DNA of 64,000 bases from assembly GCA_020628165.1 (NCBI GenBank), contig JAHDFM010000006.1, forward strand, positions 31,303 to 95,302, given 5' to 3'. Below, one piece after another: positions 345 through 60,707 of this stretch (the first letter of the stretch is position 1; each line of letters begins with the position of its first letter). The position numbers and the translations under genes are program-made. The notes below the pieces were generated by a model. The model was not told the origin of the DNA, did not search any database, and saw only the letters and a program-made list of their open reading frames with translations. The stretch is from Bdellovibrionales bacterium. GTDB taxonomy: Bacteria; Bdellovibrionota; Bdellovibrionia; Bdellovibrionales; UBA1609.

Positions 345-1769
345 ATGAAAGATTTCTCAGATGCCACCTATACAGCCATAATCAGTGACCTTCATTTGTG
401 CGAAGGCGAGCCTGTTAATAAAAAACATCCACTCTGGAAGAAGTACAAAACGGAGGAGTTTTTCTTTGATGAAGAATTTGCTGATTTTTTAATAGCTATA
501 GAGAAAGAAGCGGGCGATGACAAAGTAGAACTTATAATGAATGGTGATATTTTTGATTTTGATAGTGTTACTGCGATTCCAACTCATCCTATTTTTCGTG
601 TGTCCTGGTTAGAGAAAAGAAGAGGTCTTAACCCACAACAAGCCAAATCAACTTACAAGATGAATCATATTTTGAGTTTTCATAAAAAGTGGGTGCAAGC
701 TTTGAGGGAATTCATTATGCGTGGCCATCGAGTGGTTGTGATCATTGGCAACCATGATTTGGAGCTTCATTTTCCCGATGTAAAACGTGCCTTTCTCAAC
801 CACTTAGCTTTGCCTAAAGAATTTAATGATAATCTGCGATTTAACGATTGGTTCTATATTAGCAACAAAGATACTCTCATTGAACACGGTAATCAGTATG
901 ACCCTTACTGTGTGATCGAAGACCCAACGGCTCCATTCATTCGTCGCTTTAATCTCATTGAGGTCAAAGTGCCTTTTGGCAATATGGCCACACGTTATAT
1001 GATTAACGGCATGGGTTTTTTTAACCCACACGACGATCGCAACTATGTGATGTCTGCTGGACAGTATATAAAGTTTTTTCTTAAGTACATGTTGCGAGCA
1101 CAGCCTTTGTTAGTGTTTTCATGGCTGTGGGGTTCAGTGATCATTTTGTTTAAGTCATTCATTAATCGATTGCGACCTAAAGTGAAAGATCCATTCAATA
1201 TTGAAGATAACTTTAGCTACATTGCCAAAAAGTCAAATGCCACACCTAGAATGGTGCGCGAGTTGAAAGAATTATTTATAGATCCTGCTGCCAGTAATCC
1301 TATTTTAATTTTAAAAGAACTTTGGTTGGACCGTGCATTTTTAATTTTCATTACCTTGTTTATTTTATTGCAGGTGTTTTTCATTATCGAACAAGCTTAT
1401 GACATCTCATTGTTTTGGATGTTCATTCCCATTTTATTATTCTTCCCATTTTTTATGTTTTATTCAGCCTCTGTGGTTTCTAATGTGAGCTTATTTAAAG
1501 AACCAAGCGAACGTATTTTAAGTGCACAGGGTTTAATCGCCGGTGTCAGTCGCATTGTTTATGGGCACACTCACGATGCTCTTCACCAAATGATTGGCCC
1601 GATTGAGCATCTCAATAGCGGTACTTGGTCTCCTGCATTTTTAGACGTGGAGTGCACTCAAAAAGTGGGTAAAAAAACCTTTGTATGGATTCGCCCAAAT
1701 AAAGAAGGCGGCCGTGATGCTGAATTGCTTTACTTTGCCGATGACGGGATTAAATCTTACGGTTCATAA
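345..1769 (+). CDS. Calcineurin-like metallophosphoesterase with internal hydrophobic segments
   Basis: Motifs SDLHL, NGDIFDF, GNHD and GHTH in order. Three hydrophobic helices lie between GNHD and GHTH. Confidence 0.8.
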   Translation: MKDFSDATYTAIISDLHLCEGEPVNKKHPLWKKYKTEEFFFDEEFADFLIAIEKEAGDDKVELIMNGDIFDFDSVTAIPTHPIFRVSWLEKRRGLNPQQAKSTYKMNHILSFHKKWVQALREFIMRGHRVVVIIGNHDLELHFPDVKRAFLNHLALPKEFNDNLRFNDWFYISNKDTLIEHGNQYDPYCVIEDPTAPFIRRFNLIEVKVPFGNMATRYMINGMGFFNPHDDRNYVMSAGQYIKFFLKYMLRAQPLLVFSWLWGSVIILFKSFINRLRPKVKDPFNIEDNFSYIAKKSNATPRMVRELKELFIDPAASNPILILKELWLDRAFLIFITLFILLQVFFIIEQAYDISLFWMFIPILLFFPFFMFYSASVVSNVSLFKEPSERILSAQGLIAGVSRIVYGHTHDALHQMIGPIEHLNSGTWSPAFLDVECTQKVGKKTFVWIRPNKEGGRDAELLYFADDGIKSYGS

Positions 1770-2072
1770 ATTATAAAAATCTAATTATTTTAATGATTTA
1801 TGAGCCGTTAATGACCCTTTGGAGGGTTTCATTAGATGATGCTCATAAAATTGTAAAGCCTAGATTGTTTTTATGTAAAAATTTGTGAACCTAAACTTTG
1901 TAGTGACTAGAATTCTGGGCTCTATCCCCTTGCTTTTACTAAAAAAGAAATAATTACAGATCAAAATAAACCAACGCAGGGCTTAAATGGCCTTAATTTT
2001 TATTTGAGAATCAAATTATCTGGGTTAGGGTCAAAGATAGCTATTTTTACTAATTGAATAGGAGGCTACACA

Positions 2073-2267
2073 ATGGCTGAAGTTTTAGTCGTAACAAGCA
2101 AAGTTAAAAAGTATATTAAAGAAAAAGGTGGATGTAACACGTCTTCAGAGACTGTAAAAGTTTTGAGTGATGCAGTTGAAAGACTTTGTGAAAAAGGCAT
2201 TCAAAGTGCTAAGTCTGATGGCCGTAAAACGGTTATGGATAGAGATATCATCATCGATCACATCTAA
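2073..2267 (+). CDS. Small histone-fold DNA-binding protein (bacterial histone, Bd0055-like)
   Basis: 64 aa with a helix-loop-long helix-loop-helix pattern. DGRKTVMDRDII matches the archaeal histone L2/alpha3 motif GRKT(I/V)..(E/D)DI. Strong SD AGGAGG lies 7 nt upstream of the ATG. Confidence 0.8.
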   Translation: MAEVLVVTSKVKKYIKEKGGCNTSSETVKVLSDAVERLCEKGIQSAKSDGRKTVMDRDIIIDHI

Positions 2268-2342
2268 TCAAAAAGTGATTGAAAACTCCTCATAACTTCA
2301 ATTCAATAGAAATTAGATATGAGCGAAATTTAAAAATCGAAA

Positions 2343-4361
2343 TCAATCGAGCATGGCTAAAAATTGCTCGATTGATAAGACTTTGACGCCGAGATCCTCG
2401 GCTTTTTTTAATTTTGAGCCAGCAGCTTCTCCTGCAATTAAATAATCTGTATTTTTACTCACGCTCCCTGGTGAGCTACCACCATTCACTTCAATGGTTT
2501 TTTTCAAATCACTGCGTTTGTAATTATCAAAGCTTCCTGTGATAACAAACTTTAGCCCTTTTAACTTTTTAGAGGCATTAGTGACATCACTCTTTGCGAT
2601 CTTAACACCATTTTTAAGCAAGTTCTGAACTTCCTTAACGAAGTCTTTATTGCTCAAACTTGAAGTGATGGAGCTTGCTACTTTGGGTCCAATATCATTG
2701 AGAGCCAACAGGTCTTCTTCGGTGGCTTTTAAAAACGATGGCACGTCTTGATAATAATTGGCTAAGGTTTTAGCCGTTTGCTCACCGACAAAACGAATTC
2801 CAAGGGCATAAATAAAACGGCTAAGCTCTGGCTGTCGGCTGGCATCGATGCTTTTAATAATATTGTTGGCCGATTTTTCACCTTGTCGCTCCAAGGGAAG
2901 AATGTCTTCTTTTTTAAGTGTGTATATATCAGAAAAAGTTTTCACTAACCCTTCGGTCCAAAGTTGTTTGGTGATTTGCTCTCCGAGCTTATCAATGTTC
3001 ATGGCTTTTTTACTGACAAAATGTTTAAGGGACTCCTTCACAACAGCGGGGCAAAAAAGGTTTGGGCAACGATAAACAGCTTCGTCTTCATTTTTTTCAG
3101 CCTTGGTTCCACACACGGGGCATTTTTGGGGAAACTCATAAGCAACAGATGACTTTTTTCTTTTCTTTAAGACAACTTCCACAACCTCTGGAATAACATC
3201 ACCAGCTCTTTGCACCACAACGGTGTCGCCGATGCGCACGTCTTTACGAGCAATTTCACTTTCGTTATGAAGAGTGGCGTTGGTGATGGTCACGCCCCCC
3301 ACAAATACAGGTTCCATAATTGCCACAGGCGTGAGTGCGCCAGTTCGACCCACTTGTAACACAATATCTTTAATGACTGTGGTTTCTTGTTTTGGTTTGT
3401 ACTTGGCAGCCGTTGCCCAGCGCGGGCTTCTGGCGACAAAGCCAAGTTCTTGCTGTAGCTGGAAGGAGTTCACTTTCATGACCATGCCGTCGATTTCAAA
3501 CTCGAGTTGATCGCGCACACTTTCGATGAAGTGGTAGTGTGCCACTGCCTCTTCTGCGTTTTTACATTTTTTAATGATTGCAGATTTTTTAATTTTTTTT
3601 GCAATTAAATTTGGGATTTTTAATTGGTTGACGGCCTCTAAGAATTGATAGTGAGAGTCGGCACCGTGACCGTCAATCACTCCTGGGGCGTAGGCGTAAA
3701 AACGCAATGGGCGGGTGGCAGCCACTCGAGAATCGAGTTGTCTTAACGTTCCAGCGGCGGCATTGCGAGGATTGGAAAAGGTTTCAAGCCCTTGACTCAG
3801 TTGCCCCTCATTGAGTGATTCAAAGTCACTTTTGTGTAAGAGCACTTCCCCGCGCAGTTCAAAAACGTCTGGCACGGCCCCGGCATCAATTTTTAATGGA
3901 ATGGTCTTAATAGTTTTGGTGTTCAGTGTGACATCTTCGCCAGTAGTTCCATCCCCGCGAGTGATGGCTTTGGTGAGCAAGCCTTTTTCATAAACTAATT
4001 CAAGAGCTAAACCATCAAGTTTTGGCTCGCAAATGAACTCTACGTCTTCATCTGAATTTAAAAATTTTTTGATGCGCTCATCAAAGGCTAAGATATCATC
4101 TGGAGAGTAACTGTTTTGCAGTGATAGCATAGGTGTGCGATGTTTAACTTTACTGAACTTATCTAAAGGCGTTGAACCGGCGCGCTGACTTGGCGAAGTT
4201 TCGGTAACAAGCTCAGGGTGCTTGGATTCGAGCTCTAAGAGTTCATTGAAAAGTTGGTCGAACTGGTAATCACTGATGGTTGGTTTATCCAGTGAGTGAT
4301 AGTTGTAATTGTGCTGTTCAATTTCTATGGATAATTTTTTATGCTTTTCTTTGTAGTTCAA
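2343..4361 (-). CDS. ligA: NAD-dependent DNA ligase
   Basis: 672 aa. Adenylation motif EPKLDGLA, Zn-finger CPVCG...CPNLFCPA, and a C-terminal BRCT-like GLKFVITGSF. Confidence 0.97.
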   Translation of the reverse strand: MNYKEKHKKLSIEIEQHNYNYHSLDKPTISDYQFDQLFNELLELESKHPELVTETSPSQRAGSTPLDKFSKVKHRTPMLSLQNSYSPDDILAFDERIKKFLNSDEDVEFICEPKLDGLALELVYEKGLLTKAITRGDGTTGEDVTLNTKTIKTIPLKIDAGAVPDVFELRGEVLLHKSDFESLNEGQLSQGLETFSNPRNAAAGTLRQLDSRVAATRPLRFYAYAPGVIDGHGADSHYQFLEAVNQLKIPNLIAKKIKKSAIIKKCKNAEEAVAHYHFIESVRDQLEFEIDGMVMKVNSFQLQQELGFVARSPRWATAAKYKPKQETTVIKDIVLQVGRTGALTPVAIMEPVFVGGVTITNATLHNESEIARKDVRIGDTVVVQRAGDVIPEVVEVVLKKRKKSSVAYEFPQKCPVCGTKAEKNEDEAVYRCPNLFCPAVVKESLKHFVSKKAMNIDKLGEQITKQLWTEGLVKTFSDIYTLKKEDILPLERQGEKSANNIIKSIDASRQPELSRFIYALGIRFVGEQTAKTLANYYQDVPSFLKATEEDLLALNDIGPKVASSITSSLSNKDFVKEVQNLLKNGVKIAKSDVTNASKKLKGLKFVITGSFDNYKRSDLKKTIEVNGGSSPGSVSKNTDYLIAGEAAGSKLKKAEDLGVKVLSIEQFLAMLD

Positions 4362-4641: not shown

Positions 4642-4911
4642 ATGGACATTGAAAACGTGGCGTCTCTTGCGAGATTGCAACTCTCTGAAGATGAAAAAAT
4701 TAAATTCAAAGAACAAATGGGATCCATTCTTAATTACTTTGAAGATCTTAAAGATGTGAATACTGAAGGAGTGGAGGCTTTAGTGACTCCCACAGACATA
4801 AACAAAGACTATCGAAAAGATGGTTCTGTTTCTTGGGACAAAGCCAGCGATGCACTAGAAATTGCTCCACTTAAAAAAGGCAACTTGTTTCAAGTGCCAC
4901 CGGTTGTATAG
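4642..4911 (+). CDS. gatC: Asp/Glu-tRNA amidotransferase subunit C
   Basis: 89 aa with LARLQLSEDE...F..L, directly upstream of gatA and gatB. Confidence 0.9.
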   Translation: MDIENVASLARLQLSEDEKIKFKEQMGSILNYFEDLKDVNTEGVEALVTPTDINKDYRKDGSVSWDKASDALEIAPLKKGNLFQVPPVV

Positions 4912-4919
4912 GACACCTT

Positions 4920-6389
4920 ATGAAAGATTTAACTCAATTGACCGCTAAAGAAATAAATTCAGGAATTAAAAACAAACAATTCAAAGCTAGCGAAGTAATG
5001 TCGAGCTTTTTAGAGCAGATCGATGCTAAAGACAAAGAGCTCAATGCATTCATAACATTGAATGACAAAGCAATGGACCTTGCCAATGCCGTGGATAATA
5101 AAATAGCAAGTGGCGAAGACATTGGTGCTCTCGGTGGTGTGCCCATTGCGATCAAAGACATGCTTTGTACTGAAGGTTTAAAAACCACTGCTGGCTCAAA
5201 GATGTTAGAAAACTTCATACCACCTTATTCAGCGACAGTTGTTAATAAGCTTGAACAAAGTGGTGCAATCGTTATTGGTAAATGCAATCAAGATGAATTT
5301 GCTATGGGTTCGAGTAATGAGACCTCTTATTATGGAAATTGCAAAAACCCTTGGAACACCGATTATGTACCTGGTGGATCGAGTGGTGGCTCAGCAGTTG
5401 CAGTGGCAGCAAGTATGGCACCAATTTCTATTGGAACTGATACGGGAGGCTCTATCAGGCAGCCAGCCAATTTTTGTGGCGTGGTTGGTGTGAAGCCAAC
5501 TTACGGGCGAGTGAGCCGTTATGGCATCATTGCATTTGCTTCCAGCCTTGATCAGGCGGGCCCTTTTTCTAAAACCATTGAAGATTCTGCGATGGTGCTT
5601 GAATCCATTTGCGGTGAAGATCCATTTGATGCCACAAGTTCAGCAAACACGGATTTATCATTTGTAAGTTCACTCAATAACGACCTTAAAGGTCTAAAAG
5701 TTGGTTTGCCGAAAGAATACTCCGACGGAGAAATAGACGGTGAGGTTGCAGCAGCTGTTGAGACCGCCAAAAAACAATTGGCTGACCTCGGTTGTGAGTT
5801 CGTTGAAGTGAGTTTGCCTTACACCAAATATGCCGTGCCAATTTACTACATCATTGCAACGAGTGAAGCTTCGAGTAACTTAGCTAGATACGATGGTGTG
5901 CGCTTTGGCCACAGAGCTGACTTTAAAGATAAACCGGCAGCTGATCTGTTAGATTTTTACTCCAGAAACAGAGGTGAAGGTTTTGGAACTGAAGTCAAAC
6001 GCAGAATCACGTTGGGGACTTTTACACTTTCCAGTGGTTATTATGATGCTTATTACAATAAAGCTTGCCAAGTGCGCCGCTTGCTCCAACAAAACTTCAC
6101 GGACACTTTCAAGCAGTGTGATGTTTTGTTAAGCCCAGTGACGGCAACTCCTGCATTTAAAATAGGTGAAAGAATCGCAGATCCGATCACTATGTATAAG
6201 AATGATATTTTCACAACATCAACTAACCTTGCTGGCCTTCCTGGCTTAAGTCTACCTGTAGCGTTGCACAGTAATGGTTTACCAGTAGGAGTGCAGTTGA
6301 CAGCGGGAGCCTTTCAAGAGTCACACTTGCTCAACATTGCTCACAAATTAGAACAGTCCATAGGTTTTAAAGGAGAGATCCACTCATGA
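4920..6389 (+). CDS. gatA: Asp/Glu-tRNA amidotransferase subunit A
   Basis: Amidase signature GGSSGGSAVAVAA. 489 aa. Confidence 0.97.
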   Translation: MKDLTQLTAKEINSGIKNKQFKASEVMSSFLEQIDAKDKELNAFITLNDKAMDLANAVDNKIASGEDIGALGGVPIAIKDMLCTEGLKTTAGSKMLENFIPPYSATVVNKLEQSGAIVIGKCNQDEFAMGSSNETSYYGNCKNPWNTDYVPGGSSGGSAVAVAASMAPISIGTDTGGSIRQPANFCGVVGVKPTYGRVSRYGIIAFASSLDQAGPFSKTIEDSAMVLESICGEDPFDATSSANTDLSFVSSLNNDLKGLKVGLPKEYSDGEIDGEVAAAVETAKKQLADLGCEFVEVSLPYTKYAVPIYYIIATSEASSNLARYDGVRFGHRADFKDKPAADLLDFYSRNRGEGFGTEVKRRITLGTFTLSSGYYDAYYNKACQVRRLLQQNFTDTFKQCDVLLSPVTATPAFKIGERIADPITMYKNDIFTTSTNLAGLPGLSLPVALHSNGLPVGVQLTAGAFQESHLLNIAHKLEQSIGFKGEIHS

Positions 6390-7813
6390 TTGGAGATTGG
6401 AAACCAGTAATCGGTTTAGAGATACACGCACAATTAAACACTGAAAGTAAAATGTTTTCAAACGACTCAACGGCCTTTGGGCAAGGTGATAACGCCAATA
6501 TATCACCTGTCTCCTTAGGTTTGCCGGGTGCATTGCCAGTGGTAAATAAAAAAGCCATTGAAAACTCCATCAAAACTGGTCTTGCCTTGAACTGTAAAAT
6601 TAGAGGCACTTCGGTTTTTGCCAGGAAAAATTACTTTTATCCTGATTTACCTAAAGGCTATCAAATATCACAATTTGATAAGCCGTTGTGTGAAGAAGGT
6701 TATGTTGAGTTTCATATTAATGACCAAGTGAAGAGAGTGGGTATTACTCGTGCTCATATGGAAGAAGATGCTGGCAAGTCGACTCACCATGGTGACTACA
6801 GTTTAATTAACTTAAACCGCGCTGGTGTACCGTTACTAGAGATTGTTTCTGAGCCAGAAATTGAAACACCTGCAGAAGCGGCTGAGTATGCAAGAACCGT
6901 CAGACAAATCTTAAGATTTTTAGATGTGTGTGATGGCAACCTTGAAGAGGGATCATTACGTTGTGATTGTAACGTCAGTGTGATGAAAAAAGACGCCACA
7001 GAGTTTGGCACCAAAGTGGAAATAAAAAACATCAACTCATTTCGCTTTGTTGAAAAGGCCATCGATTACGAAATCAAAAGACAGATAGAAGTGATTGAGT
7101 CCGGTGGTGAGATCATGCAGGAAACGAGATTATTTGATTCCACAAAAAACAAAACTTACTCCATGCGTAAGAAAGAACAAGCCCACGACTACAGATACTT
7201 TCCGGACCCAGATTTATTGCCTGTGCAAGTTTCAGATGAATGGGTGAGTGAAATTAAAAGTACACTTCCAGAATTACCACGCGACATGGCTAAGAGGTTC
7301 CAGCAAGATTATGGTTTGCCAGAGTATGATGCCTCTGTATTAACTCAAGAAAAGTCGTTAGCTCAGTATTTTGAACAAGCGGCTAAAGAAAGCAGTAACG
7401 CTAAGGCAGCTTCAAACTGGGTGATGGTGGAGTTACAGCGCGAACTCAATGATAAAAAAATAGATATCGAAAATTCACCCATTTCTGCGAGTCGCTTGGC
7501 GCAGTTGATTCAATTGATCGACAAAAAAGTAATCTCAGGAAAGATTGCCAAAAAAGTTTTTGCCTTCATGTTAGAGGACGATAAGAACCCTGAAGACATC
7601 GTGAAAGAAAAAAACCTTGTGCAAATAACGGACGAGTCAGCCTTAGAAAAAATGGTAGATGAGATCATTGCCAGCAACCCAGGCCAAGTCGAGCAGTATA
7701 AAGCTGGTAAAACAAAGTTGTTTGGATTTTTTGTTGGGCAAGCAATGAAAGCATCCAAAGGACAAGGAAATCCTGAAATCATTAACAAGCTTTTAAAAAG
7801 CAAGTTAGGTTAA
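6386..7813 (+). CDS. gatB: Asp/Glu-tRNA amidotransferase subunit B
   Basis: 475 aa with GLEIHAQL, NLNRAGVPLLEIVSEP and a C-terminal YqeY-like tail. ATGA overlap with gatA. Confidence 0.97.
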   Translation: MIGDWKPVIGLEIHAQLNTESKMFSNDSTAFGQGDNANISPVSLGLPGALPVVNKKAIENSIKTGLALNCKIRGTSVFARKNYFYPDLPKGYQISQFDKPLCEEGYVEFHINDQVKRVGITRAHMEEDAGKSTHHGDYSLINLNRAGVPLLEIVSEPEIETPAEAAEYARTVRQILRFLDVCDGNLEEGSLRCDCNVSVMKKDATEFGTKVEIKNINSFRFVEKAIDYEIKRQIEVIESGGEIMQETRLFDSTKNKTYSMRKKEQAHDYRYFPDPDLLPVQVSDEWVSEIKSTLPELPRDMAKRFQQDYGLPEYDASVLTQEKSLAQYFEQAAKESSNAKAASNWVMVELQRELNDKKIDIENSPISASRLAQLIQLIDKKVISGKIAKKVFAFMLEDDKNPEDIVKEKNLVQITDESALEKMVDEIIASNPGQVEQYKAGKTKLFGFFVGQAMKASKGQGNPEIINKLLKSKLG

Positions 7814-13980: not shown

Positions 13981-15660
13981 ATGGCGAAAGCTACAGAAGA
14001 AGCAGATGCAAAGTCTGTCAAAAAGAAGAAAAAAGTCACTAAGAAAACCACCAAAAAAGTTACTAAAAAGGCCACAAAAAAAGAGCCTGAAGTTGAAATC
14101 GAAGTGGAAGAGGTAAAAGCTGTTGCAGCTCCAGAAGTCAAAGAAGAAATCAAACAAGAGACAAAATCTGACGATGCCTCTGGCGACAAAGATAAAAAAG
14201 AAGGCAAAAAAACCTACAAAGAAGTAAAATACGAAGGGCGCGGCCATAGAGGAAGTGGTGGTAAAAACGATTATCGTCGCAATAATAAAAACGGCAAGCA
14301 CCGCGGATATAGAAATGGTGGAGGCAATGGTAACTCGGGACGATCTGAAAATTCTGAGCCAGAAGTTGAAATTGACTTGAGCGATATTAACTTAACCGAA
14401 GAAGAACAACAAAGTTTAAACTCTAAAAACTTAAAATCTAAGAACATTCAAGAGATCATCGAACTTGGCGTTAAACTAAAGATAGAAAACGCAGCCGGCA
14501 TGAGACGCCAGGACTTAGTCTTTAATGTTTTGAAACGTGCGGCTATGCTGGGAGACATCTACGGAAGTGGTTGTCTAGAAATATTACCTGATGGTTATGG
14601 TTTTTTAAGGTCTCCAGACTACAATTATTTACCAGGACCAGATGATATATATGTAAGTCCTTCACAAATCAGACGTATGGGTCTGCGCACAGGTGACACA
14701 GTTTCTGGAACAGTGAGGCCTCCTAAAGATAATGAAAGATACTTTGCTTTATTAAAACTAGAGACTTTGAATCACGCTCCTCCAGAAAAGAGCAAAGACA
14801 AAGTTTTGTTTGATAACTTAACTCCACTTTACCCGGAACAAAGACTCAACTTAGAGCACAAGCCTAATGAATACACAACGCGTGTGATCGACCTTATGGC
14901 TCCTCTAGGAAAAGGTCAGCGTGCTTTGATCGTGGCCCCACCAAGAACGGGTAAAACGGTCATTATGCAAAACATTGCTCAAGCTCTTTCCGAAAATCAT
15001 CCTGAGGTGAAATTGATAGTATTGCTTATTGATGAGCGACCAGAAGAAGTCACTGATATGTCTAGAAACGTTGACGGTGAAGTGGTGAGTTCTACATTTG
15101 ATGAACCCCCAACTCGTCACGTGCAAGTGGCTGAGATGGTCATTGAAAAAGCTAAGCGCTTGGTTGAGCAAAAGCACGATGTTGTTATTTTACTCGATTC
15201 TATTACACGCTTGGCTCGCGCTTACAACACAGTGGTTCCACCATCTGGAAAGATCTTATCTGGTGGTGTTGATTCCAATGCCCTACACAAACCAAAACGC
15301 TTTTTTGGTGCCGCTAGAAACATCGAAGAGGGCGGCAGTTTAACTATTATTGCAACGGCTCTTGTGGATACTGGCTCTCGTATGGATGAAGTTATTTTTG
15401 AGGAGTTCAAAGGAACTGGTAACGCTGAAATCCACTTGGATCGCAAACTCATGGAAAAAAGAACATTCCCATGTATGGACATCAATAAATCTGGAACAAG
15501 AAAAGAAGATCTTCTTATCGATAAGGGTGATTTAAATCGCTTGTGGATTTTAAGAAAAGTTCTCGCTCCGATGAATGTGGTCGATAGTATGGAATTCTTG
15601 TTAGATAAATTAAAGAATGCCAAAACCAATGATGAATTTATGTCATCAATGTCTGGGTGA
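13981..15660 (+). CDS. rho: Transcription termination factor Rho with a roughly 145-aa low-complexity N-terminal extension
   Basis: Walker [18 protein letters not shown], and the canonical N-terminal helix bundle starting near aa 147. Residues 1-145 are K/E-rich, then RG/N-rich. Confidence 0.97.
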
Positions 15661-31532: not shown

Positions 31533-33008
31533 TTATGAGAAGAGCTCGTCAATGCGGCCACTAATTTCACCTTGAGTGTTTATATTTACACCCAAAGCTT
31601 TGAGAGCTGAAATAAATACCTTTGTTGGGTGTTGTTTGTTGGCGTTAAAGTGTTTTCCAGGCTTTAAACCGCCCATATTTCCCGAAACTAACATAATCAT
31701 ATTTTCAGCAGAGTGAGCATAGTGGGTTTCGTTGGCACTTTGATAAAATTTATCTGAATAATAATTTCGTCCTTTGCCAGCTTCACAAAAGTACACACCG
31801 ACAGTTTGATCATAAAGAGATCCGGTACCAATGTTAGTGTCTTTAAGTTTTTTAATTAAACTGGCATACATATTAATCTGCCAAGCATGGGCTTTGTGCA
31901 ATGCCTCGATGTTTTTTTGTGATGATGAACACGCGGACCCACAACCATGAGTTAGGTTATGAAAATCTGTGTAAACACCAGTGATGGGGCCTGCATTTAA
32001 CCATGGGTGGTTATATGTTGCGACTAAGTTCACCACATTATTAATTCCACAGGACATAGCCATGTAGGCGAGATCAACTGCGACTTTAGCGCGCTCGATT
32101 TCATTGGAATAATTTTCATTCCCGCGAACTTGCTGGCCTCTTTCATTGCGCCACTTATTTATGTCTAAAATATTCCCTCTTGCTTGGTCAGGGCCAGGGT
32201 CTTTCATTTTATAACAGCTTACAATTTCTTTTTGATCGATATTGCTCAACTGAGTTTCTAAGTCTCGCAGTGAAGAGATGTGTCGATCCATTTTAACTTG
32301 GTCTGAACGACCAAGTTTTTTCTTAAATTGATTAAGGTCGTCTTTGACTAAGTCTAAAACTGTACCTCTTTTTTTAAATTCAAATAAGCGACGTTGTTCT
32401 TGAGCTTGATCACTTGAGCTAACATTGCTAACTAAGTCTAGATAAAGTTTGTGAAGGTCAGTTTTGGGCATGAGCTTCACTTTTTTCTTTATACTGACTG
32501 TAGATGTTCCACCAGTATAACCTGAAGCTTGCACACCAATTGTTAGTGGTGTTTTACCACCTGTGCTGTTGGCAAAAATCACATCGGGAGAGTCATAAGA
32601 TTTTATTGCATCAGTTTTAACCTTGCGGCTTCCACTGAGTTGGATGGTATGACAGTTTCCGTGGATGTTAGAAACCCCACCGGGCTTATCTTTGTAAGGC
32701 ATAAATAAATTGGAGGCTATTTGTACAAGGTTACGCACTCCGTGGTCATTGAGGGGTTGCAATGAAATTGGCAAATTTGTTCCAATCGGGCCTGTTGAAT
32801 AGGGCATGAGTACAGGGTCTTTTTGAGACTTATGCCCTGAGGCCAAAGCAATGCCTGAAAAAACAGTGAAGTAATTTTTGGGAATCGCCGAGCCTTGAGC
32901 AAAAGCTTCCCCATGACTGTTTAACATGAGATCTAATATAGGTAGCTTTATTGCTGTTGAATAAAGTCCTCTTAAAAATGTTCTACGGTCTAAAAAATGT
33001 TTTTTCAT
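31533..33008 (-). CDS. DUF1552-family protein with Tat signal
   Basis: MKKHFLDRRTFLRG twin-arginine signal (an internal ATG of the listed ORF). Its start is 1 nt after the upstream stop. Family-typical C-terminal tail. Confidence 0.85.
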   Translation of the reverse strand: MKKHFLDRRTFLRGLYSTAIKLPILDLMLNSHGEAFAQGSAIPKNYFTVFSGIALASGHKSQKDPVLMPYSTGPIGTNLPISLQPLNDHGVRNLVQIASNLFMPYKDKPGGVSNIHGNCHTIQLSGSRKVKTDAIKSYDSPDVIFANSTGGKTPLTIGVQASGYTGGTSTVSIKKKVKLMPKTDLHKLYLDLVSNVSSSDQAQEQRRLFEFKKRGTVLDLVKDDLNQFKKKLGRSDQVKMDRHISSLRDLETQLSNIDQKEIVSCYKMKDPGPDQARGNILDINKWRNERGQQVRGNENYSNEIERAKVAVDLAYMAMSCGINNVVNLVATYNHPWLNAGPITGVYTDFHNLTHGCGSACSSSQKNIEALHKAHAWQINMYASLIKKLKDTNIGTGSLYDQTVGVYFCEAGKGRNYYSDKFYQSANETHYAHSAENMIMLVSGNMGGLKPGKHFNANKQHPTKVFISALKALGVNINTQGEISGRIDELFS

Positions 33009-33009
33009 A

Positions 33010-34692
33010 TTACTTCCAAACAATTTGTTTAAATTCGTTAGACATAATAATGTCGCGAATTAAATTTTTGTAACTCCCATGAAGAGTAAAACTTCGTTGC
33101 AATGATTTTAAATAAACGGGGTTCACTTCTTTAGTATCAAAGCCAAAAGCAAATAAACTGGCTTTTTCAACGAGGCAATTTTGCACAATAGTTCTTTCGT
33201 TATAAAGAGCGTTACTAAAACCAATAAGACCTGTGAACTTGCCAATGTTGTAAATCTCGCCTTCACCATCTATTTGGCAGGACTTATCTAAGTGTTCGAC
33301 AGTGCGGTATTGTCCTAGGTGGTTGAAGTTTTCTAATCCGAGACCAATGCCATCCATTTTTATGTGGCAGCTTGCGCAGGCAGGGTTCGTCATTAAAGCA
33401 AGATGACTGTCTTTCTTACATTTGCCACCGTTAGTTGGTGGCGGAAGTTCATCGAGGTCTACATTTGCAGGAGGCTGTCCAATTTTATCACAAAGAAGTC
33501 CTTTGATAAGGTTATAGCCTCGTTTACTTGGGCTAGAATCTCCAATCTTAGGAAAAGCTGACAAAAATGTAGCGTGAGAAAAAATTCCCATGCGTGGTTG
33601 ATTGGTGGTTTTGTAATTGATTTTATAAAAATCTTTCGACCCCTGTGTTGGAAAGCCATAATGTGCGGCAAGGGCATCATTCACATAGGTATAATCTAAT
33701 TTTAACAGATCGATCCAACTTTTGTTTTGATCTATGATGTGTTCTTTTAAAACCTTCTGAGTTTCCTGAATGGCATTCACTGCAATGACCGGGGGCAATT
33801 GCGATTGATAGTAACCAAACCACATAGAATGAAAATTTAATAGCTGGCGAGTGGCCTCAGGCTTATCAAACAGGCGTTCAATTTCAAAAGCAAGCGTAGA
33901 TGAATCCTGCAAGCTATTGGTGAGCGCTTTGTCGATGAGCTGACTGTCTGCTGGTGCTCCTGTGATTAAATAAGACATTTTGTTAGCAAACTCAATATCA
34001 CTTAAGGTGTATACAGTTCCGCTTACACTGCCTGATCCGTACTCTGTATATACAAACCTTGGAGACTGAAAGGTGAACATTAAAATAGAGTCCACAGCAG
34101 TATCAAAATTTCCAGATTCTTTTGAAAGCTCTATGGCCTTTAAGTTGAGTTGGTTGGTGGTTGAACTTGCTGGACGAGTTGTAAAGGCTTTATCAAACAC
34201 GTTGCTAGTGATTTTTGATAAACAATTTAAGTCAGTTGCGCTTTGGGGGTTACAGACAAAGACTTCTTTTTTAGCTTGATCTGATTTAAATATCTCTTCA
34301 CTCAACCGACGAGCAAAAAACTCAAGGTTATTAATTAGGTTTTCAGAAATAATTTGATCTTTGATAGTATTATTAAAAGGAGAGAGTGTTTCTTCACCTA
34401 AAAAGGACTCTACATTAATGTCGATTTTGAATCCAACTTTGATTTTGTTGTAAAGCTCATTATTAGTAAGCTTTCTGAAGCTAGTTGCTGGCATGACCCC
34501 TTCAGGTGCATTTTTAAAAGCAGGACTGTCGCCTCCGCCAAAGCTTCCATCTGAGCCGTCACCAAATCCACCGGTGTCACCATTGGTTGCGAAGTCTCCG
34601 TTAGCAATAAAACTAGGGGCACAGTTATTATAGGTTCCTATAATAAGAAATAATAGTAAGAAGTGTGTAATGTGTTTTTTCATCGCTAACAT
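33010..34692 (-). CDS. DUF1588/DUF1592-type protein with a single CXXCH motif
   Basis: 560 aa with a signal peptide and NPACASCHIKMDGIGLGLENF. The pairing with a downstream DUF1552 gene is the usual arrangement for these families. Confidence 0.8.
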   Translation of the reverse strand: MLAMKKHITHFLLLFLIIGTYNNCAPSFIANGDFATNGDTGGFGDGSDGSFGGGDSPAFKNAPEGVMPATSFRKLTNNELYNKIKVGFKIDINVESFLGEETLSPFNNTIKDQIISENLINNLEFFARRLSEEIFKSDQAKKEVFVCNPQSATDLNCLSKITSNVFDKAFTTRPASSTTNQLNLKAIELSKESGNFDTAVDSILMFTFQSPRFVYTEYGSGSVSGTVYTLSDIEFANKMSYLITGAPADSQLIDKALTNSLQDSSTLAFEIERLFDKPEATRQLLNFHSMWFGYYQSQLPPVIAVNAIQETQKVLKEHIIDQNKSWIDLLKLDYTYVNDALAAHYGFPTQGSKDFYKINYKTTNQPRMGIFSHATFLSAFPKIGDSSPSKRGYNLIKGLLCDKIGQPPANVDLDELPPPTNGGKCKKDSHLALMTNPACASCHIKMDGIGLGLENFNHLGQYRTVEHLDKSCQIDGEGEIYNIGKFTGLIGFSNALYNERTIVQNCLVEKASLFAFGFDTKEVNPVYLKSLQRSFTLHGSYKNLIRDIIMSNEFKQIVWK

Positions 34693-35577: not shown

Positions 35578-35709
35578 GTCTAATTTTTTCACCTTAATGC
35601 TAATTTTTGAAATACAAACCATAAATATTTAAGTTTCGCCTATAATAACTATTCTTAATAGACGTTGTTCTCAGTTTCAGATATTCAAACTTAATTGGGG
35701 GGATGTTCA

Positions 35710-37230
35710 ATGAACTGGAATGATGAATTTAACCGTTTTGTTGGTCACTATTCAAAATACCAAGACTTATCTGGCAGAGATCAGCCAGCTGAGAATTTCA
35801 TTAAGTTTATAGACGCAGATATTGGTCGAAAAGTGGACTTCAACCGTATAGCTGTTCATCACATGGTTATTCCTGCATATAGTCGCTCATCGTCCCCACA
35901 TGCAGAAAGTCATGAAGAAGAATTTGTTTTAGTTCTGCAAGGTCAAATAGATTTGTGGCTCAATGGATTTATTTACCCTTTAAAAGAGGGACACGCCGTT
36001 GGTTTTCCGGCAGGAACAGGTATTTCACATACATTCATCAATAACTCTGACCAAGATGTTCAACTTATTGTTGCAGGTGAAAAAACCAAGGATGAGAATT
36101 TATGTTATTTTCCAATCAATCTGGAGTTCAAAGAGACTTGTGGTATTTGGTGGGAAAATGCTCCTCGACACCAACTAGGTTTTCATGATGGTAAACCTAA
36201 AAAAGTTAAAAATGATGAACTTGGAAAAGATAAACCAGGCTGTGTTGTTTATTGCCCTGAAGTTAGAATAGGTGAATCATTTCATTACCCAAGTGACAAC
36301 GAAACCTTTGGTGAGGGTTTTAGAATCACTGACAAGGTTGGTTTAAAGGCTCTTGGCGTAAATTACGAGCACTTGCCACCGGGCCGAAGGAGTGCCTTCC
36401 CTCATGCTCATACCCATGAAGAGGAGTTTGTATTTGTCATTAAGGGTAAGCCAACTCTTTGGATGAATGGATATACGAAGACTCTTGAGGAAGGGTGCTT
36501 TGCTGCATTTCCATCAAATACCGGTATTTCTCACGCAATTATTAATGAGACTGAAGAGCCGGTAGAGTATTTGTGCATAGGGGAAACTGCAGACTTTCCT
36601 GACGAAAAAATTATATACCCATTCAATCCATTGAGAAATAAAGAGTGCGATCGCAAGGGTTGGTTTTGGAAAGATGCCCCCAAAGTGGAATTTGGAAAAC
36701 ATAACGGTCAATCAAAAATACCTTTTCAAGGGCATCTCAAACTAAGGTTAGTAACCAAGGAAAATGTAGACGAAGTTCATCAAATCTGTAAGGACTTTCC
36801 TCAGTACTTTATTAAAGTTGAAGGCTGTGAACCAACAAAGGAAATGACTTTCAAAGAAATTGTTGAAAAACCTAAAGAGCAAAGCCAACAATACTTTAAA
36901 GAGTTTTTGATTATTGAAGCTGAAGGTCAAGCAGTTGGTGTTGTTGATCTTCATGTAAATCATCCTGAACAAGAAACATGTTATATTGGTTTGCTGCTTT
37001 TAAAAGAGAGTTTACAAAGAAAAAGGTTAGGAACTCGAGCTTATAAATTTATTGAAAATTATATTAAAACAGCTTTGTCGTGTGAGAAAATAAAGTTGGG
37101 TGTGTCAGAAGAAAACGATGTTTCAATTTTTTGGCAAAAGTTTGGATTTAAGCCAAGTGGTAAAACATATAACTGGCATGGTGAGAAAAAAACTGCAAAG
37201 GTCATGGAGTTTCAAAAATCACTCAATTAA
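35710..37230 (+). CDS. Bicupin-GNAT fusion protein
   Basis: Two cupin cores (HAESHEEEFVLVLQG, HAHTHEEEFVFVIKG) followed by a GNAT-like tail (QRKRLGTRAY). ATG preceded by GGGGGGA. Confidence 0.8.
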   Translation: MNWNDEFNRFVGHYSKYQDLSGRDQPAENFIKFIDADIGRKVDFNRIAVHHMVIPAYSRSSSPHAESHEEEFVLVLQGQIDLWLNGFIYPLKEGHAVGFPAGTGISHTFINNSDQDVQLIVAGEKTKDENLCYFPINLEFKETCGIWWENAPRHQLGFHDGKPKKVKNDELGKDKPGCVVYCPEVRIGESFHYPSDNETFGEGFRITDKVGLKALGVNYEHLPPGRRSAFPHAHTHEEEFVFVIKGKPTLWMNGYTKTLEEGCFAAFPSNTGISHAIINETEEPVEYLCIGETADFPDEKIIYPFNPLRNKECDRKGWFWKDAPKVEFGKHNGQSKIPFQGHLKLRLVTKENVDEVHQICKDFPQYFIKVEGCEPTKEMTFKEIVEKPKEQSQQYFKEFLIIEAEGQAVGVVDLHVNHPEQETCYIGLLLLKESLQRKRLGTRAYKFIENYIKTALSCEKIKLGVSEENDVSIFWQKFGFKPSGKTYNWHGEKKTAKVMEFQKSLN

Positions 37231-58702: not shown

Positions 58703-59535
58703 AAGGTCCTCCCTAATTTGATTCACTTTACATACATAGACATAGCGAGAAGCGTGCCAAATTGAGTGTCTCATTTTGAGATACTGATCATATAATTTCA
58801 ATAACTTACAATAACAGGGGTGTAGTCTGTTGTTGAACCCTTTTAGAAAAATAAGACAAAATTGCGCTTGTATAGAGTGTTTACAGTACCCTATTAGTTC
58901 ATATTGATTTTTAGAATTCAATCATACGATGGCAACAATTATTAAATATTAAGGAATTAAAAATTTAAGTAAATCAGAGTTGTAAATTTAATCTATTATT
59001 TTCTGAGAATTTAACTACTGAAGTACTTATAAAGACTTATTTCTAGGGTCAGCTTTTGATTATAATTGCTTAGTAGTGTTCCGTTCATTTAAACTTGTGT
59101 CTCGTTGGAGCTCTAAAGAAGTAAAGTAGCATTTAAAGATTCGAACGCCTAATAACTATGAGAAACTAAAGGCTTATCTTTTTATTTGAGATTGTTAATT
59201 ATAAGAAAATGGATAAAAGCTTTTAGAGTTAAGGAGTAATTGATGATTATAATTTTATATCTATTTTATAAAGTGTCTAAACATTAACTTTAACCCATCT
59301 GTTTTAACAGTTTAAATTATGTATCAATCTAAGATTATTATAAATGAAATTGGGTTTATGATCATTATATTAGGCAATTAGTTAATGTAAGATTATTAGT
59401 GTAAGAAAATGATACGTGTAAAAAACCAACACAAATGTTTCCATCTTGTCTCAAAAATAAAATATTTTTACAAAAACACGACTAAGTTACTGATCTTACA
59501 TTAAGTTTATGAATGGTCTTTAAATTGCTTAAAAC

Positions 59536-59556
59536 TTATTATTATTATTATTATTA
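59536..59556. repeat. Trinucleotide microsatellite (TTA) x7
   Basis: Seven units, counted directly. Ends about 8-10 nt upstream of the SD and about 22 nt upstream of the ATG at 59580. Confidence 0.95.
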
Positions 59557-59579
59557 TTTCCATCAAGGAGAAATTATAA

Positions 59580-60707
59580 ATGAAACTTAATAAAACTAAA
59601 AATATAATGATTGCGATCACTGGTTTATTACTTGTTGTCTCTTTCCAAAACTGTGGCAATAGTTTTGAAACAACCTCAGATCAAAACGAATCAATGACAG
59701 AATCATTTGCATTAGGTAGTGCAGAATTAGGAACTAACATTGAAAGCTCAACAAATGATGAAGATCGTGTTTCAGAAAAGTTATCTACTAATTTATACAG
59801 ACAATCTGCTTTAGAAGCGATTTACAGTTATACTCACCCTAATAAAGGTCCTGGAGCACTTTTGGTTGTGAGAAAAGGTCAAGCATTAAATGGCTCATTG
59901 GGCCCAGGCAAATATCTTGATCAATTTCGCGTTTCTTCTGACGATAGGTTTTTGTTTGTTTCAGCTTGTTCAAATCAAGCTCAGCCGAGATGTTATGTAT
60001 TTGTAGAAGCCCGACGCTTTAGACGCAATCAAGTTGTGAATTTTTCAGTTAGGGGAATTGCAACATCTCCTACAGGTGTTACATCGTTTGGTAACCACAC
60101 AAATAAAAAAACATACGCCTTTAACTATAGCTGTGCACAAGTTAACTCAAACTATTATTGTCCAGAAACTAATAATAGCGGACAAGTTGTACCACAGTTA
60201 GGTCATCATTTCCGTGCTGATGGTTTGTTTTTCATGTATTTAGGCTCAAATGGAAGTGGTCATAATTGTCGTTTAGCTAGAGATAAATTTGATCCTGCTA
60301 AAGAAATTCCACGCCCTTCAGATGTTGAGAGGCTTAGGTATCATGTCCCATGTAATAATTTATCTTATGATGTTGTTGGGACTGCTGGACTAGATAATAC
60401 CAGTTCTAGCTCTGTAGATAGTCCTACGACAATTCCAACAATTATTGGTGAAGGAGTTAAAAACTTAAGGTTCAAAAGATATGGACAATCGGGTGAAGTT
60501 TTTTGGGAAAATCCAGCTAATATTAAGTGGGTTCTTGTTGATTGTAGAGTTAATGGTGAAAAGTTCGCAAAATCTTTTGGTAATGGTGAAACTAGCTTTT
60601 ATATACCCAATTTAAAGTCTAATTTGGGCGGCTGGTGTGATGTAGCGACAGCTTACCAAGATGGAAGAAGAACAGAGGAGAAAAAAGTTTTAATTCCTGT
60701 CAGATAA
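59580..60707 (+). CDS. Hypothetical lipoprotein
   Basis: Lipobox FQNC and SD GGAG. 375 aa with several Cys pairs. Confidence 0.7.
   Translation: MKLNKTKNIMIAITGLLLVVSFQNCGNSFETTSDQNESMTESFALGSAELGTNIESSTNDEDRVSEKLSTNLYRQSALEAIYSYTHPNKGPGALLVVRKGQALNGSLGPGKYLDQFRVSSDDRFLFVSACSNQAQPRCYVFVEARRFRRNQVVNFSVRGIATSPTGVTSFGNHTNKKTYAFNYSCAQVNSNYYCPETNNSGQVVPQLGHHFRADGLFFMYLGSNGSGHNCRLARDKFDPAKEIPRPSDVERLRYHVPCNNLSYDVVGTAGLDNTSSSSVDSPTTIPTIIGEGVKNLRFKRYGQSGEVFWENPANIKWVLVDCRVNGEKFAKSFGNGETSFYIPNLKSNLGGWCDVATAYQDGRRTEEKKVLIPVR

Follow-up and report, generated by a model that had tools for sequence, protein, structure and literature searches.

An orthologue of the Bdellovibrio histone Bd0055/HBb at its conserved place beside ligA in an uncultured Bdellovibrionales bacterium

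The window (the whole 64-kb stretch of DNA analysed here) carries on its + strand a small gene, with its ATG at 2073 and its stop codon at 2265-2267, whose translation is the 64-aa protein that a first-pass annotation had singled out as a histone (Table 1). This annotation had described a stand-alone gene with a strong AGGAGG Shine-Dalgarno (SD) sequence, and both points hold. The SD lies 7 nt before the start codon, the metallophosphoesterase gene upstream ends at 1769, leaving a spacer of 303 nt, and the next gene downstream, ligA, runs in the opposite direction, its stop codon (2343-2345) being reached after a gap of 75 nt. The long upstream spacer and the convergent ligA indicate that the histone gene is monocistronic.

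Table 1. Coordinates of the histone gene, its neighbours and the candidate signals around it (positions in the window)
Feature	Position	Strand	Basis or remark
Calcineurin-like metallophosphoesterase, 474 aa, upstream neighbour	345..1769	+	PF00149
Conserved upstream block AAATGGCCTTAATTTTTATTTGAGA, candidate promoter/operator element	1985..2009	+	Motif conservation
Shine-Dalgarno AGGAGG	2060..2065	+	7-nt spacer to histone ATG
Histone gene, 64 codons and stop	2073..2267	+	Bd0055/HBb orthologue by PDB match, 75% identity, Foldseek and dN/dS
Perfect 12-bp inverted repeat, 11-nt loop, candidate ligA terminator	2342-2353 / 2365-2376		Fold
NAD-dependent DNA ligase LigA, convergent neighbour	2343..4361	-	All LigA domains found
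GC hairpin GCCGAG-ATC-CTCGGC and T7, candidate intrinsic histone terminator	2388..2409	+	Inside ligA 3' coding end
gatC-gatA-gatB operon, in conserved neighbourhood	4642..7813	+	Domain matches and synteny

The surroundings are those of an ordinary core chromosome, with ppx also among the housekeeping genes around the histone and with rho, prfA, prmC, a murA-like gene, serS, groEL, nadE, rmuC and four tRNAs in the rest of the window. The GC content is 37.7%, and the host lineage is one of lower GC. A search of the 64-kb window found neither a second histone of the Bd3044 type nor any homologue of HU, IHF, Fis or H-NS, a result that applies to the window only. Rfam returned nothing credible around the histone gene at E<=1, and over the whole window only the four tRNAs.

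Some further features of the window can be recorded here. The metallophosphoesterase has a hydrophobic C-terminal part, as read from its sequence. Rho (559 aa, 13981-15660, + strand) has an N-terminal extension of about 150 aa with no Pfam match, Rho_N starting only at residue 151. At 31533-34692 on the - strand lie adjacent DUF1552 (HXXSHH) and DUF1588/DUF1592 (PSCyt3/PSD4) genes, a pair that we take to represent Planctomycete-type domains of unknown function. A 511-aa protein (35695-37230, + strand) combines two cupin domains with a C-terminal GNAT acetyltransferase domain. Finally, an (ATT)n microsatellite of about 8 units (59541-59565), just ahead of the SD for the gene at 59580, could be phase-variable.

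The histone has many relatives. A search of 5.8 billion proteins gave 740 homologues at E<=1e-3, nearly all of exactly 64 aa, and those with a name belong to MAGs of Bdellovibrionales, Pseudobdellovibrionaceae or 'Oligoflexia'. Relatives are encoded by 379 GTDB species genomes, of which the best 80 are all Bdellovibrionota. In 73 of these best 80 loci the same order is found, that is, histone (+), ligA (-), gatC-gatA-gatB (+) and a ppx-like gene (+); several of the seven loci with no ligA match are on short contigs. The arrangement is also seen in Bdellovibrio sp. MAGs (L070, L075 and L076). The upstream metallophosphoesterase is less constant, being present on the same strand in 31 of the 74 loci whose upstream DNA is long enough. 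Of the same best 80 loci, 78 have a GGAGG-type SD no more than 20 nt from the start.

The histone is under strong purifying selection. In comparisons with 78 orthologous genes the median dN was 0.15 and dS was saturated (finite in only 32 pairs, with a median of 2.2), which sets dN/dS at about 0.07 or less. Across loci the histone is 75-84% identical, against 50-56% for LigA, 48-66% for GatA and 57-76% for GatB, so that it appears more constrained than the essential enzymes encoded beside it. High expression is only suggested by this pattern of selection together with the strong SD and the monocistronic layout.

Histone-fold genes are patchily distributed in bacteria and some of the cases may be contaminants (Hocher et al., 2023; PMC10627809), which makes it pertinent to ask whether the present gene is an assembly contaminant, was acquired from an archaeon by recent horizontal transfer or is a spurious ORF. 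We consider the probability of this negligible. Synteny and selection together exclude contamination or recent transfer, and several other observations point away from them: the housekeeping genes around the histone are bacterial (ligA, gatCAB, ppx, rho, prfA), its N terminus and S9-K10 motif are bacterial-specific, and the exact protein is found with its neighbours on a single NCBI contig of 154,306 bp. Nor is the ORF a product of chance, given the 740 homologues, the purifying selection and an identity above that of the flanking LigA.

The proposal that the protein has a histone fold and is very close to the Bdellovibrio bacteriovorus histone Bd0055 was borne out by a phmmer search against PDB chains. 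The best matches were two crystal structures of Bd0055/HBb obtained independently, 8FVX and 8CMP (E~2e-26), aligned from residue 1-64 to residue 1-64 with no gap and with 48 of the 64 residues identical (75%). The remaining, weaker matches were all histones as well, namely HTkC (9F2C, E=1.4e-4), HLp (9QT0, E=2.5e-4), HMk, the Asgard HHoB, HPhA and HMfA. The predicted pI is also similar (8.6 vs 8.9 for Bd0055). Domain models were less telling for the single sequence. The Pfam family CBFD_NFYB_HMF, with which the first-pass annotation had suggested checking the fold, was indeed found but below threshold (19.4 bits vs a GA of 21.4), as was NCBIfam archaea_histone (28.1 bits vs a cut-off of 50), and this check alone would be marginal. 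At the level of the family the signal is clearer: PF00808 is matched by 48 of 50 members, and hhalign aligned the family profile to HMfB (sequence from PDB 1A7W) at E=4e-5. The profile alignment also reproduced the likeness noticed earlier around L2 and alpha3, by placing DGRKTVMDRDII on AGRKTIKAEDI of HMfB. It contains a 4-residue gap within alpha2. An alpha2 shorter by one turn is a diagnostic feature of the singlet histones of bacteria (Hocher et al., 2023; PMC10627809), and we take the gap to be this shortening. The DUF1931 pseudodimers do not provide a better home for the protein, which is a single 64-aa fold with its DNA-binding residues present and matches PF09123 weakly (E=0.027, below GA).

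AlphaFold2, given an alignment of 50 sequences, produced a monomer model of low confidence (pLDDT 62, pTM 0.41), as is to be expected when one half of an obligate dimer is modelled by itself. The low-confidence model predicts alpha1 at about residues 9-18, L1 at 19-23, alpha2 at 24-49, L2 at 50-55 and then a one-turn alpha3 truncated to the three residues 56-58, followed by an extended C terminus; only nine residues remain after L2. The five best PDB matches of this model in Foldseek were HBb entries without exception, and other histones came next. The helix-loop-long helix-loop-helix topology is thus present in both the model and the Foldseek matches, and the ungapped 75% identity to a protein of known crystal structure is the stronger argument.

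The published work on Bd0055 allows the comparison to be taken to individual residues. Its DNA contacts are K12, T23, S24, A25, K52, T53 and R57, with a second interface at T8, S9 and K10; R51 and D58 form an RD clamp that D49 strengthens, and the core of the dimer consists of V11, L31, I35, L38 and I59 (Hu et al., 2024; PMC11317129). An RKTV motif, the S9-K10 motif, an N-terminal AEVL engaged in filament contacts and the lack of a sprocket arginine have been described as well (Hocher et al., 2023; PMC10627809). All the published contact, clamp and dimer-core positions are identical in the window protein (K12, T23, S24, D49, R51, K52, T53, V54, R57, D58 and I59 among the shared residues), with the exception of the conservative replacements A25S and I35V. 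The named residues are invariant or at least 90% conserved among 50 diverse family members, in which 27 of the 64 positions do not vary at all. The L2 motif RKT(V) (R51-K52-T53-V54) and D58 of the RD clamp are among the invariant positions. The hydrophobic N terminus MAEVLVVTSKVKK is identical to that of Bd0055, the first 13 residues with AEVL and T8-S9-K10 being common to both proteins, and T8, S9, K10, K12, K13 and K16 are the same in all 50 members.

The window protein and Bd0055 from B. bacteriovorus HD100 (8FVX, 8FW7, 8CMP, 9EZZ, 9F0E) have the same length of 64 aa and differ by 16 substitutions. Most of these are located on the surface of alpha2 (D29K, K33D, Q37R, L40E, E44Q and A48S, from Bd0055 to the window protein), and another, A56D, adjoins R57. 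The surface charge swaps D29K, K33D, L40E, E44Q and A56D could alter dimer-dimer packing in the proposed filament. Unlike B. bacteriovorus, the host is uncultured, and its housekeeping proteins are only about 50-75% identical to those of the sampled relatives. Position 21 also differs, with a cysteine in the window protein and a methionine in Bd0055; here Bd0055 is the exception, C21 being the norm of the HBb family (at least 90% conserved). C39 does not vary at all in the family. Small nucleoid proteins seldom have conserved cysteines, and we know of no role for C21 or C39 in the HBb family. A disulfide between them was considered and dropped, since they would stand some 15 residues apart along alpha2, a distance reckoned along the chain.

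The histone fold and the L2 motif with its RKTV and RD clamp are common to the window protein and to histones that wrap DNA, and the weak matches to HLp and HTkC could be read in the same sense. The protein might then form tetramers or hypernucleosomes, like the archaeal HMfB and HTkA or the face-to-face HLp of Leptospira. The residues on which such assemblies depend are, however, not there, and we regard this as extremely improbable. The archaeal Phe/His/Leu positions of the four-helix bundle hold S45, S48 and I61, with S48 in the place of His49. Precisely these three positions had to be mutated (A48H/S45F/I61L) in order to obtain DNA wrapping by Bd0055 (PMC10627809), and the window protein shares its non-tetramerising residues there; position 48 differs between the two, but the serine is still not a histidine. 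The sprocket arginine of HMfB (R19) aligns with N22, an invariant residue of the family, and the predicted alpha3 makes a single turn, not three. The tetramer of HLp relies on R49, N53 and R55 (PMC12701072); in the alignment of the PDB search, Arg49 and Asn53 (HLp numbering) correspond to S45 and D49, so that this face-to-face (FtF) interface is also missing.

These differences are best seen against the likenesses. With HLp (Leptospira perolatii) and HTkC (Thermococcus kodakarensis; 9QT0-2, 9F2C) the window protein has in common a short alpha2, a one-turn alpha3, the RD clamp, an alpha1 start rich in lysine and serine and a sequence similarity of E~1e-4, but those two FtF histones build stable tetramers through R49/N53/R55 and wrap about 60 bp. 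With HMfB and HTkA (1A7W, 5T5K) it shares the fold, the RKT motif of L2, the RD clamp and the DNA contacts by paired L1-L2 loops, but its alpha2 is 4 residues shorter and its alpha3 has one turn vs three. Given the short alpha2 and alpha3, the lack of a His49-type four-helix bundle and N22 in place of the sprocket arginine, hypernucleosomes are not expected. HU and IHF can be considered functional analogues, being small, abundant, dimeric and nonspecific DNA-bending proteins whose fold and sequence are unrelated, and the behaviour of HBb has been explicitly likened to that of HU (Hu et al., 2024; PMC11317129).

A different role would be that of a sequence-specific regulator, or of an adaptor between proteins, that makes use of a histone fold, as in the eukaryotic NF-Y and TAFs, rather than that of a global nucleoid protein. 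Pfam CBFD_NFYB_HMF does include transcription factors, some prokaryotic histone-fold proteins may have roles other than in chromatin (Schwab et al., 2024; PMC11390915), and the literature still describes what Bd0055 does in vivo as unknown. We find this very unlikely for the window protein. Bd0055, 75% identical to it, binds throughout the genome with no sequence specificity in DAP-seq (PMC11317129), and no other protein is as abundant in the nucleoid fraction (PMC10627809). All the residues that contact the phosphate backbone are conserved in the window protein, which has no extra domain, and its gene is solitary with no partner gene.

Sequence clustering has been used to define a 'bacterial dimer' category among the alpha3-truncated histones (Schwab et al., 2024; PMC11390915), and the window protein clusters by sequence with Bd0055/HBb (75% identity over 64 of 64 residues). 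We are highly confident that the product is a singlet bacterial histone of this class, orthologous to Bd0055/HBb; orthology, residues, selection and genomic position are directly observed, and the activity expected by analogy is that of a nonspecific, non-wrapping nucleoid dimer. Two chains would pair through antiparallel alpha2 helices around a core of V11, L31, V35, L38 and I59, giving an obligate handshake homodimer. This dimer would hold the DNA backbone across the minor groove with its paired L1-L2 loops, probably with an additional central contact by T8-S9-K10 at the N terminus of alpha1, and irrespective of sequence. The residues found at the archaeal (S45/S48/I61) and face-to-face (S45/D49) positions would make tetramers impossible and leave the DNA unwrapped. 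By the same analogy, single dimers would bend DNA at low occupancy, as described by Hu et al. (2024), and at very high occupancy dimers may coat straight DNA as a filament, as described by Hocher et al. (2023). Again by analogy, the product of this monocistronic gene with its strong SD would be an abundant and probably essential protein of the nucleoid.

Which of the two modes prevails has been debated for HBb itself. An end-on 'nucleohistone filament' on straight DNA, with one dimer per 2.5 bp, was described in vitro (Hocher et al., 2023; PMC10627809) and is contested by the finding, also in vitro, that individual dimers bend DNA much as HU does (Hu et al., 2024; PMC11317129); later papers mostly take the bending model (PMC11390915, PMC12701072). 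The statement of the first-pass annotation that Bd0055 is a major nucleoid protein of unusual binding mode agrees with Hocher et al. (2023); the unusual mode, the end-on filament, is the contested part. The window protein preserves the AEVL tail as well as the basic ridge, and both models make use of them. As a rough weighting for the situation in vivo, bending dimers seem to us somewhat probable, a filament rather unlikely and any other mode more unlikely still.

The 3' side of the gene is compact. The perfect inverted repeat listed in Table 1 (2342..2376 overall) spans the stop codon and last codons of ligA and is followed on the minus strand by a T-rich run, and the region 2265-2415, which also includes the GC hairpin, folds at -38.5 kcal/mol (z = -4.56). 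In other genomes, a hairpin followed by T5 occurs within 220 nt downstream of the histone in 53 of 78 loci. Of 73 loci, 45 have at most 150 nt between the stops of histone and ligA, and in a few the genes overlap, by up to 17 nt. With so small a tail-to-tail gap, histone transcripts must often end inside or against ligA, and the convergent overlap appears to be lineage-wide.

Upstream of the gene, the spacers of the different loci are otherwise unalignable, with the exception of a block of 23-27 nt conserved within a sub-clade of Bdellovibrionales. Near-identical copies (AAATGGCTTCCCTTTTAATTTGAGATG) are found in 13-15 of the best 80 loci, about 60-95 nt before the histone ATG. When its 23-nt core ATGGCTTCCCTTTTAATTTGAGA was searched for with up to 5 mismatches, 15 matches appeared in 840 kb, against about 0.2 in shuffled sequence, and for 14 of the 15 a histone ATG followed 59-95 nt downstream. 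The copy in front of the window histone, at 1987, is one of these and is diverged (5 mismatches). The only match elsewhere is at 59169 of the window, within the block 59167-59191 (TAAAGGCTTATCTTTTTATTTGAGA). The block is probably a promoter or operator element. As a sigma-70 promoter it has no acceptable -10 element 16-18 nt from TTGAGA, as a sigma-54 promoter it lacks the -12 GC, and a hairpin is not kept in the other loci, so that none of these three readings was adopted; Rfam had no match for the block.

Two further observations concern the same DNA. A weak terminator-like hairpin, AGGGCTTAAATGGCCTT, with a T-rich run (1978-1994, + strand) overlaps the block. The second copy, 59167-59191, is followed after 41 nt by an SD (TAAGGAG) and a 14-codon mini-ORF (ATG at 59244, MIIILYLFYKVSKH and a stop); copy and mini-ORF (59167-59290) sit in an AT-rich spacer of about 660 bp ahead of a gene for 375 aa with no Pfam match and a lipoprotein-like N terminus.

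Block and overlap might together form a cis-regulatory module that has escaped description, with the upstream block (core ATGGCTTCCCTTTTAATTTGAGA), diverged at 1985-2009 and recurring at 59167-59191, on one side and, on the other, an obligatory 3' overlap with ligA that places the terminator inside this gene. The main texts of Hocher et al. (2023; PMC10627809) and Hu et al. (2024; PMC11317129) mention neither synteny nor a ligA neighbour nor a bd0055 promoter. We consider such a module distinctly unlikely; if real, it might link histone dosage with the predatory cell cycle, or else with replication and repair.

Bacterial histones have entered chromatin biology recently, and to our knowledge only HBb and HLp have been characterised so far. 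The description of bacterial histones as rare needs some qualification here. Histone folds do occur in only 1.86% of bacterial genomes overall, but 67% of Bdellovibrionota genomes have a homologue of Bd0055 (PMC10627809) and a histone is therefore expected in this lineage. Homologues of Bd0055 are now routinely reported in comparative-genomics papers, and the first-pass annotation had itself regarded the family as described. Its call was correct and already known, an orthologue found at the locus and in the lineage where one would be expected, and with family, structure, abundance, likely essentiality and distribution all published, its novelty is low. Only the upstream block and the tight tail-to-tail arrangement with ligA may be new, and modestly so.

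What the orthologue does show is the uniformity of the HBb family, which evolves more slowly than the essential enzymes encoded next to it and keeps a position that is fixed across the order. Its natural variants (the surface charge swaps, C21 and A56D) are useful for the question of which residues favour filament formation or bending. We are not aware of any description of how histone expression is controlled, and the conserved upstream block would provide a handle on this control.
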